From: a virus
Length of the DNA: 64,000 nt
Strand: one strand, 5' to 3'
Virus record (IMG/VR): IMGVR_UViG_3300036770_004568
Coordinates: 18,611-82,610 of that record
Below, piece by piece: positions 5,487-64,000 of this stretch (positions are counted from its first letter, which is position 1; every line of letters starts with the position of its first letter). The translations under genes and the position numbers were made by a program. Below the pieces are notes generated by a model. It saw only the letters and a list, made by a program, of their open reading frames with translations, did not search any database and was not told the origin of the DNA.

Positions 5487-8400
5487 ATGGAGAAGCGGGA
5501 GTCCCTAAAGAAAACCTTAAATCCTGGCGAGATCAAACTGGAGTGGATCCCCAAGAATTGGCCCCTGACCCCGTTGGGTGCCTACAAGAATGCCTATATC
5601 CAAGACTGGCAATCTAACCCGTTCTCTATTGAAGAAATTAGAACGGAAATTAGCCAAGGCCGATGTAAAGGTGTTGGCGTCTTGGGAGGTCCCTGCTTCA
5701 ACGAACGTTTTGGTTTGGTGTGGGTGGATGTCGATGGACAGTCGGTCCAGTCCAAGATTGAGGAGCTCTCACACCTTCCCTATGCGGAAGCACTGCCCGA
5801 TACCCTGACGATCTGCAGCGGTCGTGTGGGCCGTGAGCGCAGATTGTACAAGGTCTTGGCTGAGGACTTTGAGATCTTTGTTCGCAACAAATACTCTTGG
5901 CAGACCGATACCCCTGGTGAAAAACTAGAGATCCTCTGGTCCAACCTTCAAGGTGTGGTCATGGGACTGCATCCGGAGACCAGTGGCTTTTACACCCCTG
6001 ATGGTCTGGGCTTTGAGTGGGCCACGGATCTCCCACTGATTCCCAGTTGGCTCAAAGATGTCATCACCTCCAAGAATGCGCGGATGGGTGGTGCCGCCAA
6101 ACGGGTCACCCGTGTGGAAGGTCCTGGCTTTGCGTTCTCGCTGATTCAGGATTCCTCCAGAGATCGGGCCATGGCAGTCGAGGCCATGTGGTCGTTGCCG
6201 AGTGAGTTGGCGGATGACTATGACACCTGGATCATGGTTGGCCAGGCCTTGCATTCGGTTGATGATGAATTACTGGAGCAGTGGGATGCCTGGTCCCAGC
6301 AGTCAGAGAAGTATCAACCTGGTTTGTGCGAGCGCAAATGGGCGTCGTTCAATGCCGGATCGGGTGTGGGGCTGGGAACGCTCATTGAACTCAGCAAGAG
6401 AGTCTCCAATGTCGTCTATGAGCGACTGGAGCGTGAGAATGCATCACTGCCTGAAGATGATGACCTCGATCAAATCGAGAAGATTCGTCTTGAGCAGATG
6501 ATGATGCTTGAAGGTGTGGTGGAGCAAACCATTGAGAACACCACTGAACTGCATCACATCCATGAGGTGCTAGAAGAAGTTGTGGATGTGGTCAATGACT
6601 TTGCTGGTCAAAACCTTGTTGTTGATGAGTCATCGCTCGATACGGATAGTCCTGAACCCTCACTACCATCGCTGAAGAGAAATCCTCCCGTCAACATCAT
6701 GCGGGACATGATTCTTTTCAAGATGGCTGGGAGTATTCTCTATGATCCAACACAGGAGTCCTATTACAGATACAGCCATAGATCAGAAGGCGTGTGGGGC
6801 AAGCTATCAAGTTTTGAAATGAACTCCATCATCCAGAACTACCTGGATGAAATGCACCTGCCCAAAGGCTATTCATCAGGGACGGTTCAATCACTGATGG
6901 ATCTCCTCGGACCACGGCTGGGTCAGGTGGAGTGGAACAACAAGCCCAACTTGCTGTGCTTCAAGAATGGGGTTCTTGATACCGAGACCATGACCCTGAT
7001 GCCCCACAGCAGGGACTTCTACATGGTCACCCAATTGCCATTTGACTACGACCCTTCTGCAGATTGTCCCCGTACCAAGCAGTGGATTGCCTATACCCAA
7101 TTCAACAATGAGGAGATGGTCAAGGTGCTGCAGGCCTGGTTGCGTGCGGTGCTGCTGGGACGCCATCAACTGCAGATGTTCCTGGAATTGATTGGTGCTG
7201 CCGGTGCTGGTAAAGCTCAGCCCAATGACGCTCGTATCTTGACGCCCGATGGATGGCGCCATTTGGATTCCATCAAGGTCGGTGATCATGTGATTGCCGC
7301 TGATGGCAATCCATCGTTGGTCATGGGGATCTATCCGCAAGGACGCAAGGAGATCTTTTCTGTTGTCTTTGATGATGGCAGTGTGGCTGAGTGCTGCAAT
7401 GAGCACCTCTGGCAGATCTACATCGGTGACAATCGCAACCACTACATCTGGACACTGGGGCAGATCCAGGAGTACCTCAAGAAATGTCCTGATGCACGGA
7501 TCTCAATTCCTCTCTGTCAGCCAGTGCAGTTCCCTGTGCAGCAGATCCAGGCGGAACCCTACGCCTATGCACGGGAAGTCATTGATTTGATGAACAGTGG
7601 ATCGGAGTCCAACAAGATTCACTGTATCCCGATTCAGTACAGACTGAATACCATCTCTGTTCGTCTGCATTTCCTGCAGGGTCTGATGGACCTAGCCGGT
7701 AGCACCAGGGAGGATGGGATGTGTGTGTTTGAGTGCAAGGAAGAGTACTTTGCTTCGGACCTGGCTTCGATCATCCGTAGCCTGGGAGGTAAAGTTTGGG
7801 TGCGTCCGCAGAAATCCAGGTCCAAGAAAAACCCTGTTGTGACCTATCGGTTGGAGTTCTTCTTGCATCCGATGTTTGCCCCCTTCCGCCTCAACGATGA
7901 GAAGCTGGTGGAGTGGCGTAAGGCTTACAACGGCTTTGCCCACACCAAGGTGATTGACAAGATCACGTTCTCTCGCTACTCAGAAGCGCGTTGCATCTAC
8001 ATCAACAACCCAGCTCACCTGTACATCACGGATCACTTCGTGGTGACGCACAATACTTCGTTCTCAAACCTGTGTGTGGCCCTGGTGGGAACTGAGAATA
8101 CCTTTAGCACCAGGCTCAGCCTGCTGGAGAGCAACCGCTTTGAGGTCAGTGGTGCCTATCAGAAGAAGCTGATTGTGATCGCCGACTCGGAGCGCTATGG
8201 CGGATCGGTGGATACGCTCAAGGCATTGACAGGTGGTGATCAGATTCGCTCGGAGCAAAAGTTCCAGCGTCAAGCCTCTTCGTTTGTGTACACAGGAATG
8301 TTGGTGCTCACGGCCAACGAGAGCTTGCAGACCACAGATCCCAGTTCCGGTCTGTTCCGGCGCCGCCTGACCGTTCCTTTCTCTCGCTCCAGGGCTGGGC

Positions 8401-25167: not shown

Positions 25168-25239
25168 CCAGATGTAGGTCAGCGGTAGACGGCTTGCTTT
25201 GGGAGCAAGAGGACGTTGGTTCGATCCCAACCATCTGGA
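25168..25239 (+). tRNA. tRNA-Pro(TGG)
   Basis: Acceptor CCAGATG/CATCTGG; anticodon arm CTTGC-TTTGGGA-GCAAG; TTCGATC T loop. Confidence 0.93.
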
Positions 25240-25258
25240 TTCGATAGACTTTAGGGAT

Positions 25259-25331
25259 GCCGGATTAGCTCAGTGGTAGCAGCGCTACTCTTGTAAAGTA
25301 GATGTCATCGGTTCGAATCCGATATCCGGCT
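25259..25331 (+). tRNA. tRNA-Thr(TGT)
   Basis: Acceptor GCCGGAT/ATCCGGC; anticodon arm CTACT-CTTGTAA-AGTAG; TTCGAAT T loop. Confidence 0.93.
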
Positions 25332-59128: not shown

Positions 59129-59920
59129 TCACACCACGGGATACTTGATGTAAGGATCCAGATCGCCAAATGACACAGGGCCATCGGGCTTCACGTAGCA
59201 CACTTCACACAGCAGGTAACCACGACGACCAGCAGCGGCATCAGCAGCAGTGATGGTGGCACCAGCGTTGGAGGCCACAGATTCAGCAGCAGCCGTCGCC
59301 TTGACAAACACCCGGAAGGTCGTGTCAGCGGTCAAACGGTGGAACGATTGCGCCGTGTCGATCACACCTGAGGGGGTCTGGTAGATCAGCGGAGTACCGC
59401 CAATGCTGCCAGTTCCTTCGGCCACTTCCGTAGCCAGAGCAGGACCAGTGGTCACAGCAATTTCAGCGTAGGCAGCTTCGCGGCCCACGTTGCTCACTGG
59501 CGAACCAGCGTTATCAGGACTGAGGCTCAGACGGGCACCGGAAGGGATGTAGACAGGGGCACTTTTGCGGCTACCGGCTTGCTCGCCATCACCCAGCCAG
59601 TCTTCACCCACAGAGAGGGAGACGCGGTAGATGTAAGCAGGCTCATCAGAAGTCGCGGCCACAGTCAGACCGGTGATGTCTTCACGGGTTTCATCGTTCT
59701 TGTAGGGGGAAGGAACGATGATGTCAAACGCTTTGGTTGCGGTTGCCGGATCGGTGTCAGCCACCACGGCATAGCCAAAGGTTTGGAAATAACGCCAGCC
59801 AGGAACAGAGAGAACCGAGGTGGGACCACCCACGGTCTCATTTCCCACGTTCTGGTACCAGCCGTTGAGGGGCATGGACCAGTTGCCGGGGAAAATCTTT
59901 TTAGCTTTCTTGTAAGTCAT
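59129..59920 (-). CDS. putative capsid-associated structural protein
   Basis: 263 aa; strong RBS (AAAGGAGAG); directly follows the capsid gene. Confidence 0.65.
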   Translation of the reverse strand: MTYKKAKKIFPGNWSMPLNGWYQNVGNETVGGPTSVLSVPGWRYFQTFGYAVVADTDPATATKAFDIIVPSPYKNDETREDITGLTVAATSDEPAYIYRVSLSVGEDWLGDGEQAGSRKSAPVYIPSGARLSLSPDNAGSPVSNVGREAAYAEIAVTTGPALATEVAEGTGSIGGTPLIYQTPSGVIDTAQSFHRLTADTTFRVFVKATAAAESVASNAGATITAADAAAGRRGYLLCEVCYVKPDGPVSFGDLDPYIKYPVV

Positions 59921-59955
59921 TAAGGTATCTCTCCTTTAGTTTTTGTTATCTAGGC

Positions 59956-62900
59956 TCAAGAAAGAACCCGGCCGTCCTTGACAAAGCTATACGCACAGGT
60001 GATGAAATCCTTATTCAGGCATTCAAAACCGGCGTAAAGTTGCCAGATGAGAATAATCGCCCTGCTGAAGTCGTCATTATTATTGATGAGGACTTGAGCG
60101 TTCGGACCACCGATACCCACACCAATTGCCTGAGGACCAAAGAAGTAACCTTGGGCAACTTCCTCAGCGACGGCAGAACCAGACTCAAGCTTAGCTTGAA
60201 CAGTTTTAGTCGGGTAGTTTGTTGATTCGAAGAATTTGACGCCCTCAAAGATCACGCCAGTAGGCATAACGGGTTCACCAGCCAGGAAATAAGCCTGACC
60301 AGCTTGAGGACCCATGTAGAATGAAGCGTTATTGGGCATTGCAGGGTTGCCCATATACATGCCCTGTCCAGGATTGCCAGCGTAGCGTGCAATCTCACGG
60401 AAGTCCGGATCCCTGCGGAGGTGCATCATGAAGGTGGGATCAACAATGGCCCGATACAGACCATCAGCATAAGTAGGCACATTGCGCTTACGCATCGACT
60501 TAACGATGTTCAGCAGGTCAGTGCGCACTTGGAATTGGTGCAGGCCAAGAGAAAAGGCAGCAGTTGCACCACCACTTCCGTAGTAGTCGAGGCTGGTCTC
60601 TTCTTTACCCATGGGGTAGTAGTAGCCACCTTGAGAATCGCCAGCAGGACCACGAGCGTGGGCTTTGGCTAGTTCATCAAGGAAAATACGATCCAAACAT
60701 GTTTCTCCAGGGCTTTTAACCCCTGGCTCTATAGCTTTACCATGGCTATAGTTCAGGCTATATCACGATCTAGATGGTCTAGATCCCCGGCACTCGTGGG
60801 AGAAGTGACTGACCGGACTGGTCTTGTCTCCTAGTCGTTGCACCTTCTAGTTAATTCCTTAACTAGCTTGGCTCAGGATTCCCCTTGGTTTGGCGGGGTT
60901 CCCTGAATTCACCGGGTTATTGCCCACTATTCACATAGTGGCGGCGCAATTGTATTTACGCCAGCGGCGATAGTCCGTGTATTCCGCTTAGGTTTCCCTA
61001 GGGACTGACTATATCTTCACCCTATGAATAGGGTGCAGGACGCTCATGCCTGTAATCAGGTAGTCGATGCACTGTCTAGAATCAGTGTTCTAGCTTAGCT
61101 CAGTGTTGCCATAGGTTTCGCCAAACCCTTAGGTTTCACTGAATTCATCCTGTTATTCACTAGACATTTACATGTCTAGGCGACAACTATTTTATCGAGC
61201 AGAGTGAGGCTACCGATGGACTGGTGAAACTGATTCAGGTTACCAGTATCGAGCAGCATCCGTTGCGCGGTGACTAGAGTCTCCCGAGCAATTTTGAAGC
61301 TTGAAGGCTGAGTCGGATCGGTCGGATCAGCAGGGCCGGTATCAATTGTGTTATCCCAAGGGTGTTGATCCCTTGGCTCTATGGTTTTACCATTACCATA
61401 GTTCAGACTATATCATCACCCGTCCCAGGGGGATTGGGTGCGAGGCACTCGTGACGCAATTGTGATTTCTCTGTTTTTATTTGAGTTATACAATCTGATC
61501 ACGTCAGACACTTTTTCTGTCCGACTTAAATCAGTCTTGTATTTGAGAGAAGGAAGTACATACTCATCAATGGAAGACAAAAGCATTTTAAGCTGTTTAG
61601 TATTCCACTTTAAATAGAACTTACCTGTTTTATGACAAACTTTTGTGTAAGTGGATCCTGTTAAATCATGGATCCATGAACCAACAATATCAGTTGTTGG
61701 TTCATCTTCACAAACAGCCAACCATCCCACTCTTTCAATCTTTACTGAACCACTCGGCTTAATTCTTTTGCGAACTTCCAGTGAACCATCATCCATCCAA
61801 AATAGAGCAAGCTCTTTAAGACCAAGATTCTGAAGAACTTCGACGCTAAGAGTCTTTTTGCCTTGTGGATACAGCAGGTTGTAAATGGGGGTTAAAAATT
61901 TCTTACTTGTTACACCAAAGCGCACAGCAGGGTAAATACCTTTGTCTTTGAAGTATTTCAATTGTGCGTGTGTACCCAAGATACTGTTTAACTGCTCTAG
62001 TTGCCATTGAGCGTACTCAACATGAGCATACTGACGCTGGATGTGCAGAGTCGTTGATTCAGATCTTTTTGATTTGGAAATACAACCATCTCCGATGGCA
62101 CATCCAATAAGAAATTTTTGCTGTTCAATGTTTATCATAAAACCATCTAGCGTTAGTCGTTGAACCTTCCGTGTCCTTAAAACGGCTTGGCTGCTGATTC
62201 CCCAATAGGATAGCAAAAAATCCTCTGGAGGGGTTCCAGCAATTCACCTCGTTATCGACGCAGATTACGCTGCGAAGGAGCTACCAATTAACTCTTTGAG
62301 CACCACCAGGACTTTCTCCTTGGTGATGTTACGGCTGCTAGCAGATCCAATGGTTTGATCAGGAAGACGCTCACGGCTTTCTTTAGTACCGGGCGAGCTC
62401 CAGAACTTATAGCGGTCAAGCTGCACTGTTTGGCCAGGCTGACGGGTGAAGTCGTGGACGACACTTGGTATTCCCGTCTGGCATTGATAAGCTGCTTAGA
62501 CGGTACTCACGGGTTTTCTATCCCCATGTCCAGACTATATCATATTCCCAGGACTGTTTCTGTTTCTCAAATCTTGCCTGATGAAGTTGAACACTACGCA
62601 TCAAGAATGTCGGACAAAGATGCGGCGATTGCTATTGGAATCTCTTATGTCTCTTTTTGGAAGTTAAGAAACAAATACAACATCAAATCTTTCTTTGAAA
62701 GAACAGGTCTCAGGAAGGACAAATCTACTGGAAAGCTTTTTCGTTTTTACCAATACAATGAGCGCTATTTCTCGTCAATTGATTCTACGGACAAAGCATA
62801 TTTCCTCGGACTACTAGCGTCTGATGGAAATATCTCCCCTCGTCTTACTGCTTGTCGGATTGCTCTTAAGCACTCAGACGCAGATATCCTTGATCACTTT

Positions 62901-63914
62901 AGGCTTTGCTTGGGAGCGGATTCTCCTCCCCTTAAGACTAAAGTGTCAAAAATCAATGGCGTTGAAAACGAGCCTCAAAAGGTATTGGTTCTAAGTCGAA
63001 CTTCTATGGTTAATGATCTAATCGAACTAGGGATAGTTCCAAATAAGTCAAAAACTCTAGAAATCAAATGTCCAAGCCTTAAAGACAATGAATTATGCAC
63101 TGCCTTTCTTCGAGGCGTTTGGGATGGAGACGGATCTATTACTCACCGACGTTTCAAAGTCGTTACTGCATCTGTTAAATTTGCATGTCAGCTCGACCAA
63201 ATGATTCATCAAGTGACTGGTATTCATTTGAAACCTTCTGTTCAACGTCCTAAATCAGGAAATCCGTTATTCGAATTCTCTGGTTATGTCAAAGATGCAG
63301 CTGTCCTGCATGCGCTATACAAAGATCCGTCACCAGCTCTTAAACGAAAGAAGCTTCAATACGAGTTGCACTGGGAATCTCGGCGCTAATTGTCCTCATC
63401 ATCTCATGGAGATGGTACGACATAGTCGTTGAACCTTCTATTGATCACTCAATAGCTTGGCTGCTGATTGCCCTAATCAAAATTCTGATGAGAGGGTTTC
63501 CAGCAATTCACCGAGTTTTCATTTCATGATTACTCATGAACGCGGCTGTCAATCAACCGGTTCCGTAGCCATTTCCGCGATGTACGCGGGGTGCTTTACT
63601 ACTACAGCTTTCACTGCCACTGACATCTTGCCATGTGTTTGTAGTCTGGCTGTTGATTGGATTTGTGGTACCAATCAAACCCTGTACCTTCTCCGGTTTC
63701 ATGATAGAAACTACGGAGCCTACCGTCCAGGCTCTACACCTTCCCGTTGACGGGCTTGGCTCGGTATTCCCCACCTCTAGGGGTTCACCGAATTTGGCAG
63801 GTATTACCCTACGACTTTCATCGTAGGCGCCCCACTCGTGAATTGTCGTGAGAGGGATTGACAATTCAATTAAGGCCGGTATAGTTCAGCTCCCAAAATC
63901 TTGGGAAAATCATT
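59956..63914 (-). CDS. major capsid protein, intron-split; exons 63914-63873, 63593-63556, 62463-62291, 61342-61194, 60975-60958, 60693-59956; first exon lies outside the window
   Basis: Joined exons (1158 nt) read without a stop: NDFPKILGAELYRP|HPAYIAEMATEPV|VVHDFTRQPGQTVQLDRYKF...VLKEY|TGPADP...LTLLD|DYRRWR|DRIFLDEL...; capsid identity from recalled family similarity, size and context. Confidence 0.8.
60694..60957 (-). ncRNA. group I intron 6 (264 nt, no ORF)
   Basis: 5' exon ends U (GGCGU pairs with GCGCC); core CAACGACTA and GATATAGCC; ends in G. Confidence 0.85.
60976..61193 (-). ncRNA. group I intron 5 (218 nt, no ORF)
   Basis: CGAU pairs with GUCG (P1); P10 AUAGUU/GACUAU; CATCGACTA and AAGATATAGTC; ends in G. 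Confidence 0.88.
61343..62290 (-). mobile_element. group I intron 4 (948 nt) with a sense LAGLIDADG ORF
   Basis: GAGU pairs with GCUC; AATTGCTGGAA, AATCAGCAG, CAACGACTA, GATATAGTC; splits the Tyr codon T|AT. Confidence 0.9.
61416..62138 (-). CDS. intron-encoded LAGLIDADG homing endonuclease
   Basis: FLIGCAIGDGCI and LALFWMDDGS; AT-rich; likely start ATG 62138. Confidence 0.88.
   Translation of the reverse strand: MINIEQQKFLIGCAIGDGCISKSKRSESTTLHIQRQYAHVEYAQWQLEQLNSILGTHAQLKYFKDKGIYPAVRFGVTSKKFLTPIYNLLYPQGKKTLSVEVLQNLGLKELALFWMDDGSLEVRKRIKPSGSVKIERVGWLAVCEDEPTTDIVGSWIHDLTGSTYTKVCHKTGKFYLKWNTKQLKMLLSSIDEYVLPSLKYKTDLSRTEKVSDVIRLYNSNKNREITIASRVPRTQSPWDG
62464..63555 (-). mobile_element. group I intron 3 (1092 nt) with an antisense LAGLIDADG ORF
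   Basis: CGGU pairs with GCCG; P10 GACA/UGUC; AATTGCTGGAA, AATCAGCAG, CAACGACTA, GATATAGTC; ends in G. Confidence 0.88.
62526..63389 (+). CDS. LAGLIDADG homing endonuclease with an N-terminal HTH, on the strand opposite its intron (start 62526 or 62608)
   Basis: KAYFLGLLASDGNI and AFLRGVWDGDGSI; N-terminal SDKDAAIAIGISYVSFWKLRNKY. Confidence 0.88.
   Translation: MSRLYHIPRTVSVSQILPDEVEHYASRMSDKDAAIAIGISYVSFWKLRNKYNIKSFFERTGLRKDKSTGKLFRFYQYNERYFSSIDSTDKAYFLGLLASDGNISPRLTACRIALKHSDADILDHFRLCLGADSPPLKTKVSKINGVENEPQKVLVLSRTSMVNDLIELGIVPNKSKTLEIKCPSLKDNELCTAFLRGVWDGDGSITHRRFKVVTASVKFACQLDQMIHQVTGIHLKPSVQRPKSGNPLFEFSGYVKDAAVLHALYKDPSPALKRKKLQYELHWESRR
63594..63872 (-). ncRNA. group I intron 2 (279 nt, no ORF, atypical P7)
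   Basis: GCCU pairs with GGGC; AAATTCGGTGAA, AATACCGAG, GTAGAGCCTG, AAGGTACAGG; ends AGTAAAG. Confidence 0.8.
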
Positions 63915-64000
63915 CATCATATCTCTAGTTACCTAGAGGACGGACTATCTCTTCACCCCTGTAGGGTGCCAGGCGCTTGTGACGATTGACTGATGAAGCC
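63915..64000 (-). ncRNA. 3' part of group I intron 1 (continues beyond the window)
   Basis: P8 caccctacaggggtg, AAGAGATAGTCC, P9 ctctaggtaactagag, terminal G before AAT GAT TTT. Confidence 0.8.

Follow-up and report, generated by a model that had tools for sequence, protein, structure and literature searches.

Group I introns in the major capsid gene of a bacteriophage have been described before. In the crAss-like phages of the Zeta group, the capsid gene of the genome cMAG OLRF01000054 lies in five fragments, and domains characteristic of such introns occur in three of the four spacers between them (Yutin et al. 2021, PMC7886860); its authors are undecided between an adaptive arrangement and runaway mobile elements. 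In mycobacteriophage LittleE, the major capsid gene has an intron whose bottom strand carries a LAGLIDADG-like open reading frame (ORF); U is the last base of the exon and G that of the intron, and splicing was proven by reverse-transcription PCR (Pope et al. 2013, PMC3706429). The LittleE authors point out that splicing is required to be very efficient, the capsid protein being so abundant, and the same paper cites a capsid-gene intron in lactococcal phage Tuc2009. Here we describe a cyanophage locus of this kind, in which an HK97-fold major capsid gene, related to that of Synechococcus phage S-EIVl, is interrupted within the first 145 codons by what are very probably six mobile group I introns. 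It lies at the end of a 64,000-nucleotide stretch of viral DNA (the window), which comprises bases 18611-82610 of the linear, 82,610-base IMG/VR virus record IMGVR_UViG_3300036770_004568; the window end is also the end of the contig.

Several introns in one phage gene are likewise known from Staphylococcus phage Twort, whose orf142 reportedly carries three group I introns with splicing shown experimentally (the work is attributed to Landthaler and Shub in 1999). Twort orf142 is not a capsid gene, and it has three introns as against the six here, whose splicing is deduced from sequence. Intron-rich phages include the Jug jumbo gut phages, with an average of 18.5 group I introns per genome (PMC12880540), and the Bastillevirinae, with up to three introns per gene (PMC11878797). 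As far as these descriptions extend, both have at most two to three introns in any one gene, whereas in our 82.6-kb record six of the seven group I introns detected lie in the capsid gene. Outside viruses, the mitochondrial cox1 gene of Agaricus bisporus is described as a group I intron reservoir (PMC2987802); it too has many such introns in one conserved essential gene, with the difference that it belongs to an organelle and not to a virus under pressure of packaging and speed.

As in the Zeta case, a phage major capsid gene is divided into many pieces by group I introns. The Zeta gene has four insertions, recognized through their protein domains, whereas the present gene has six, recognized through matches to a ribozyme model and with boundaries placed to the base; unlike the Zeta case, it belongs to a cyanophage lineage with an intronless cultured member. 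In that comparison, four of the five complete introns are counted as lacking an ORF, while the intron table gives three of five (introns 2, 5 and 6). LittleE has a single intron against six here, and an antisense LAGLIDADG ORF in a capsid-gene intron is common to both. In our literature search, S-EIVl-like capsid genes with introns did not come up, nor did any phage gene carrying six group I introns; comparable cases may stand in the supplementary intron tables of PMC12880540 and PMC7886860. Six introns in one phage gene exceeds anything we found in print; the kind of arrangement is already known. An earlier note on this DNA, made from the letters alone, therefore overstated the novelty of the locus, because capsid-gene introns and a capsid gene in five fragments had already been published.

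The exons lie on the minus strand (Table 1). The earlier note had joined six of them into one frame, and recomputing their coordinates from the window gave the same six pieces, exact to the base: 42, 38, 173, 149, 18 and 738 nucleotides (nt) add up to 1158 nt, or 385 codons and a stop, with no internal stop codon. These pieces, numbered 1-6 in that note, are exons 2-7 here, exon 1 lying past the contig end. When the intronless, 387-residue homologue P0002 was searched against the window with tblastn, its residues 5-18, 19-31, about 32-89, 90-138, 139-144 and 145-383 fell on the six pieces in that order. The earlier note had staked its reading on collinearity with intronless homologues, and this was found: the joined product aligns without a gap at all five visible junctions to 87 full-length homologues (MAFFT; 120 fetched), with a mean identity of 90% over residues 1-140 and 73% over the rest. 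The introns fall at codons 4/5, 18/19, 31, 89, 138/139 and 144/145. The view that six intron removals are needed, all within the first 145 codons, was borne out; the precursor messenger RNA (mRNA) is most likely about 70% intron, and all six would have to be removed to give the 389-residue protein.

That the gene encodes a major capsid protein, as the earlier note had supposed, is supported by homology and by structure modelling. Exon 7 used as a query found 745 relatives, mostly of 387 residues; its product is 72-94% identical to homologues and matches phrog_1357 'major head protein' at 4.3e-12. Residues 35-380 of the homologue P0012 match the same family at E 6.7e-15. An AlphaFold model of P0012, built with 36 homologues, reached a pLDDT of 79.2 and a pTM of 0.78, and in a Foldseek search against the PDB all the matches listed in ranks 1-49 are capsid chains of phages, gene transfer agents or satellites at probability 1.00, including cyanophage P-SCSP1u (the best, E 1.8e-12) and HK97 Head II. 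The capsid protein had no match in a local copy of Pfam and none in a sequence search of the PDB. Among 50,697 phage records the sole match was S-EIVl, at 72% amino-acid identity, where the capsid gene is an uninterrupted frame of 383 codons (L009 4569-5720, plus strand). Gene order is also common to the window and S-EIVl: the capsid gene is followed by a 263-residue gene, a gene of about 145 residues (146 in the window, 143 in S-EIVl) and a next gene, annotated as an M23 peptidase in S-EIVl and without a Pfam match in the window; the structural genes adjoining the capsid gene in the window are intact and syntenic with S-EIVl. Taken at the level of modelling and homology, the product is identified as the HK97-fold major capsid protein of an uncultured, S-EIVl-related cyanophage. 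The S-EIVl capsid gene itself is mis-annotated: over L009 4494-5720 (GenBank KJ410740.1 60784-62010), an antisense ORF (AHV82227) and a 3' fragment (AHV82228) are listed.

A search of positions 59900-64000 with the Rfam group I model RF00028 (gathering score 50 bits) gave six minus-strand matches, of 77.1, 54.5, 49.2, 31.3, 23.9 and 21.1 bits (E 5e-19 to 0.029). All five visible 5' exons end in T (U in the RNA), all six introns end in G (omega-G), and each of the five complete introns allows a P1 helix of 4-6 exon base pairs in which the splice site is marked by a U.G pair; the 5' end of intron 1 lies off the contig, outside this test, and in relatives the exon before it ends in GAT. Intron 3 has P1 CGGU/GCCG, a P7 pairing of GACUA (nt 129) with UAGUC (nt 1019), and a P8, UUCCCAG/CUGGGAA as read from the sequence, that brackets an endonuclease ORF. 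Intron 5 has P1 CGAU/GUCG with the U.G pair, and its P7, GACUA/UAGUC, is that of introns 3 and 4 as well. The P1 of intron 6 includes six exon base pairs and the U.G pair. Intron 2 folds with a z-score of -3.58 and forms P2, P3, P4-P6 and P8; it also has an additional 8-bp hairpin within P1, and a hairpin of about 30 nt separates P8 from the sole candidate for the 3' strand of P7. Its 5' core is reminiscent of the IC3 type, unlike the other five introns.

A covariance model of the 3' half (R1) was built from 11 introns at the site between codons 4 and 5 (site 4/5) of relatives, intron 5 and an intron labelled psbA, with the copy of intron 1 excluded. R1 recovers intron 1 at 39.8 bits (E 4.9e-7), ending exactly at 63915, and also intron 5. 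With an effective sequence number of 1.27 it is too narrow for the 3' halves of introns 3, 4 and 6 (best score 8.1 bits), which were judged by reading of helices and by blastn homology; by the latter, introns 4 and 6 share 79% identity in their 3' parts (E 5.5e-11). The intron cores are 56-76% identical to one another, so the introns are not recent copies of each other, and recent duplication was ruled out as their origin on this ground. The seventh group I match of the record, C1:13213-13454 on the plus strand, has the top score of all (89 bits); it lies 5157-5398 bases before the window start, and in places it shares 72-77% identity with introns 3, 4 and 5. The earlier note's call of group I introns holds in that six model matches, exon U, intron G and the U.G pair of P1 agree with it, with the reservation that the 3' half of intron 2 is not canonical. 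On these features the six intervening sequences are assigned to group I, and we infer their splicing.

Table 1. Exons, introns and intron-borne ORFs of the capsid gene, with positions in the window (Rfam values are for RF00028).
Feature	Position	Strand	Length	Remarks
Exon 1	beyond contig end		12 nt	length predicted from relatives
Intron 1	63915..64000	-	86 nt (3'-terminal part only)	remainder past contig end; Rfam 21.1 bits
Exon 2	63873..63914	-	42 nt	N5 to P18; tblastn 100% identity
Intron 2	63594..63872	-	279 nt	ORF-less; Rfam 23.9 bits, E 0.0042, model positions 5-158 only
Exon 3	63556..63593	-	38 nt	H19 to V31 (part); tblastn 85% identity
Intron 3	62464..63555	-	1092 nt	Rfam 49.2 bits, E 1.2e-10; antisense LAGLIDADG ORF inside P8
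LAGLIDADG ORF, intron 3	62526..63389	+ (antisense to capsid mRNA)	287 aa	inside P8; start checked
Exon 4	62291..62463	-	173 nt	V31 (part) to Y89 (part); tblastn 79-95% identity
Intron 4	61343..62290	-	948 nt	Rfam 31.3 bits, E 2.5e-5, 5' half; sense LAGLIDADG ORF
LAGLIDADG ORF, intron 4	62138 (ATG) to 61416 (stop)	- (sense)	240 aa	between P7 5' strand and P3'
Exon 5	61194..61342	-	149 nt	Y89 (part) to D138; tblastn 90-98% identity
Intron 5	60976..61193	-	218 nt	ORF-less; Rfam 77.1 bits, E 5e-19, full model
Exon 6 (micro-exon)	60958..60975	-	18 nt	DYRRWR, residues 139-144; 100% match to P0002 and P0001
Intron 6	60694..60957	-	264 nt	ORF-less; Rfam 54.5 bits, E 2.9e-12, full model
Exon 7	59956..60693	-	738 nt incl. 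stop	D145 to C-terminus; one open frame

The earlier note had counted at least six introns. Six were confirmed, and six is most likely the exact number; this would make seven exons, the additional one being of 12 nt and beyond the contig end, because relatives carry a homologue of intron 1 after such a first exon. In 24 relative loci, homologues of intron 1 follow GTGTTYMTTGAT with a Shine-Dalgarno sequence; the 12-nt exon reads GTG TTY MTT GAT with GGAGGA upstream, and the intron then sits before the N5 codon. Full-length homologues of intron 1 in relatives score 92-104 bits with Rfam. A gene start immediately before exon 2, with intron 1 outside the gene, had been suggested by the ATGATG (63915-63920) at the end of the window's intron 1, in frame with exon 2. 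It was ruled out by the relatives, in none of which the site-4/5 intron has a start codon at its 3' end, and by the upstream 12-nt exon; the relatives have GGAG, GGTG or GGCG at the position of ATGATG, which is thus not conserved. An unspliced transcript could in principle start at ATGATG, substituting the first four residues.

Among the site-4/5 introns, one hairpin alternates between GUAAC/GUUAC and GCAGU/ACUGC, and P8 alternates between AUCC/GGAU and ACCC/GGGU, as read from an alignment of L077 and L047 against L030 and the rest, with L080 and window positions 63915-64000. Such compensatory changes support a conserved RNA structure.

Introns 3 and 4 contain ORFs predicted from their motifs and family matches to encode LAGLIDADG homing endonucleases. 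The ORF of intron 4 matches PF03161 at 66.4 bits (cut-off 25) as well as phrog_11023, and that of intron 3 matches PF14528 at 34.4 bits (cut-off 22.5) and phrog_4645 at 6.6e-39. Both are intact, with two LAGLIDADG motifs each, as read from the translations. Antisense endonuclease genes recur in the lineage, since the long form of the site-4/5 intron (824-826 nt; L023 5754-6577 and about 16 other loci) carries an antisense, HNH-like ORF of 186 residues, at L023 5758-6318. That ORF has the 5' splice site on one side and the ribozyme core on the other (Rfam match of the core 6331-6573, 96.9 bits); short site-4/5 introns, of 256-276 nt, are without it.

The distribution of introns among relatives was read from 81 related loci, 80 of them from IMG/VR (the best 80 of at least 597) and the other S-EIVl. 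Six lack the 5' part of the gene, and of the 75 that are left 47 have no intron, 23 have one and five have two. The occupied sites are 4/5 (25 loci, including five contigs that start inside the intron), about 21/22 (one locus), 48/49 (four loci) and codon 89 (three loci); none of the 75 has an insertion at 18/19, 31, 138/139 or 144/145. Over its whole length, intron 4 is 68-70% identical to the codon-89 insertions of L033, L061 and L077, and by this likeness it is taken to be their orthologue. An Rfam match above the cut-off was found in seven of the ten relative loci scanned, each time in a site-4/5 intron. Since relatives carry none, one or two introns, these would be optional, mobile, selfish introns and not a regulatory device. 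An allele with intron 6 and without intron 5 also exists, because the 46-residue fragment P0203 runs from residue 108 through DYRRWR directly into an intron-6-like start. Many such fragment proteins end at or near intron sites, and others are products of frameshift or chimerism; only P0203 was used, and read-throughs of the VNCWK type were taken as hints. Contigs are broken inside the site-4/5 intron in L021, L036, L050, L061 and L072 as well as in the window's own record, and six others start within the capsid gene; it appears that assemblies of this phage group break at polymorphic introns.

A number of observations weigh against this account of the locus. The record is a fragment, with a completeness of 47% by CheckV, and no RNA run is listed among the data sets that hold the stretch. 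Only introns 5 and 6 reach the RF00028 cut-off (two of six), and in relatives the insertions at 21/22, 48/49 and 89 score below it. In intron 2, no canonical 3' strand of P7 is recognizable in the fold and Rfam covers the 5' half only, and the P7 of intron 6, read from the sequence as GACUA/UAGCC, has one A.C mismatch. Insertion sites are not enriched in conserved nucleotide windows, their percentiles scattering from 0.09 to 0.97 within the first 480 nt, and the idea that they mark the most conserved windows was dropped; arguments from target sites gain nothing from this distribution. Lastly, because the two halves of the array meet at a shared 39-nt node, it is the IMG assembly and their equal depth, and no single Logan contig, that tie introns 1-3 to introns 4-6.

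This last point bears on whether any real genome has all six introns, since an assembly could have threaded together introns from different co-occurring strains. There is reason to consider such a chimera, as intron presence is polymorphic within the same samples (an allele without intron 4 has a depth of 41.7 in sequencing run X1), the k=31 graph breaks in exon 4 at the strain-shared node (62299-62337, depth 184), and intron 1 is the breakpoint of six contigs, including that of the window. In X1, however, one Logan contig covers 59956-62328 and another 62308-64000 (record 8, continuing 1343 nt past base 64000), both with no differences, so introns 4-6 lie on one molecule and introns 1-3 likewise. 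Single contigs without any difference run across the exons of 18, 38 and 42 nt; exon 3 is joined to introns 2 and 3 by a contig of run X2 (record 13), and the micro-exon to introns 5 and 6 by contigs of X1 and of run X5, from a separate study. The two halves also match in depth (22.8 and 19.5 in X1, 78.6 and 73.8 in X2), and the IMG assembly joins them. In the worst case there would be three introns in each of two strains, and we consider a chimera quite improbable. X5 holds introns 1, 2, 5 and 6 at 98-99% identity, with 1-5 differences each (three in intron 2), and nothing at 90% likeness or more across the two endonuclease ORFs. An exact-pattern scan for the junction of micro-exon and intron 6 gave no match in viral contigs, from which the window's own record was possibly excluded; the sole match among metagenome contigs, L090, was set aside as a GC-rich chance match without blastn similarity to the window.

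If the array is real, it could still be an adaptation or a ruin. The earlier note proposed that the introns could gate capsid production by timing or stress, and that skipping of the micro-exon could give a variant capsid without DYRRWR, which on this reading would be functional. The introns do lie in the late gene with the highest expression, a phage gene with group I introns is reported to be alternatively spliced (PMC11878797), exon skipping is named in the title of the Twort paper, and skipping of the 18-nt exon would preserve the frame, so that this part of the proposal stands. Against a gate, the gene is intronless in 47 of the 75 relatives and in cultured S-EIVl, the introns vary one by one, and their diverged cores point to separate lineages; X5, an independent study, has a DNA contig that joins 60693 to 60958, the exact ends of intron 6 (the sequence between recorded as 'not known'), and an allele joined at the exact boundaries of intron 4. 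The variant capsid found no support either. D139, encoded by the micro-exon, is at least 90% conserved across 36 homologues with identities down to 22%, and in the P0012 model it lies within a long helix (residues 133-158), so a skipped product is unlikely to work and, on the model, is more likely dead than a variant. A gate of this sort is improbable in our view. It is even harder to believe that the gene is decaying, overrun in a defective or dying lineage in which at least one intron, intron 2 above all, no longer splices. The missing canonical P7 of intron 2 and the P7 mismatch of intron 6 would fit, whereas the exons are undamaged and, over the invaded part, share about 90% identity with homologues, the neighbouring structural genes are intact and syntenic with S-EIVl, and the six-intron allele, at a depth of 74-106 in X2, is present in four samples from one study and again in a second one.

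The account we consider very likely, that of optional, mobile and selfish introns, would have them accumulate in the 5' third of an essential late gene whose expression requires that all six be removed. Splicing in vivo, presumably self-splicing, would be efficient for all six, given that an allele found at such high depth points to a phage that replicates. The introns without ORFs probably spread by co-conversion, whereby a nearby double-strand break is repaired from an intron-bearing allele; the exons between them being short, a break made by either endonuclease probably co-converts neighbouring ORF-less introns. A bolder version, which we regard as possible though rather unlikely, is that the six introns act as a single co-converting cassette of 4 kb that is also a weapon, damaging or converting the capsid gene of competitors. 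In a mixed infection, a LAGLIDADG endonuclease would cut an intronless capsid allele, and repair would copy the whole array, since the exons between introns measure only 18-173 nt, with the ORF-less introns hitch-hiking on the copying. For instance, an intron endonuclease of phage PhiPA3 is reported to act against competing relatives (PMC11620839).

Away from the capsid gene, the window has two adjacent transfer RNA genes on the plus strand, at 25168-25331 (Rfam 61.8 and 64.8 bits).

For annotation, the consequence is that gene callers fragment capsid genes of this type and that assemblies tend to break there. For the phage, making its most abundant virion protein would take six ribozyme reactions on a single transcript. 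If each intron were removed with an efficiency of 90%, no more than about half of the transcripts could be translated; splicing must then be highly efficient, or else the phage bears the cost. This lineage includes an intronless cultured member, S-EIVl, with a known host, and natural alleles with 0, 1, 2 and 6 introns at no fewer than eight sites. It would be a usable system for studying the accumulation of introns, the joint movement of neighbouring introns, the order of splicing among packed ribozymes and the skipping of an 18-nt exon.

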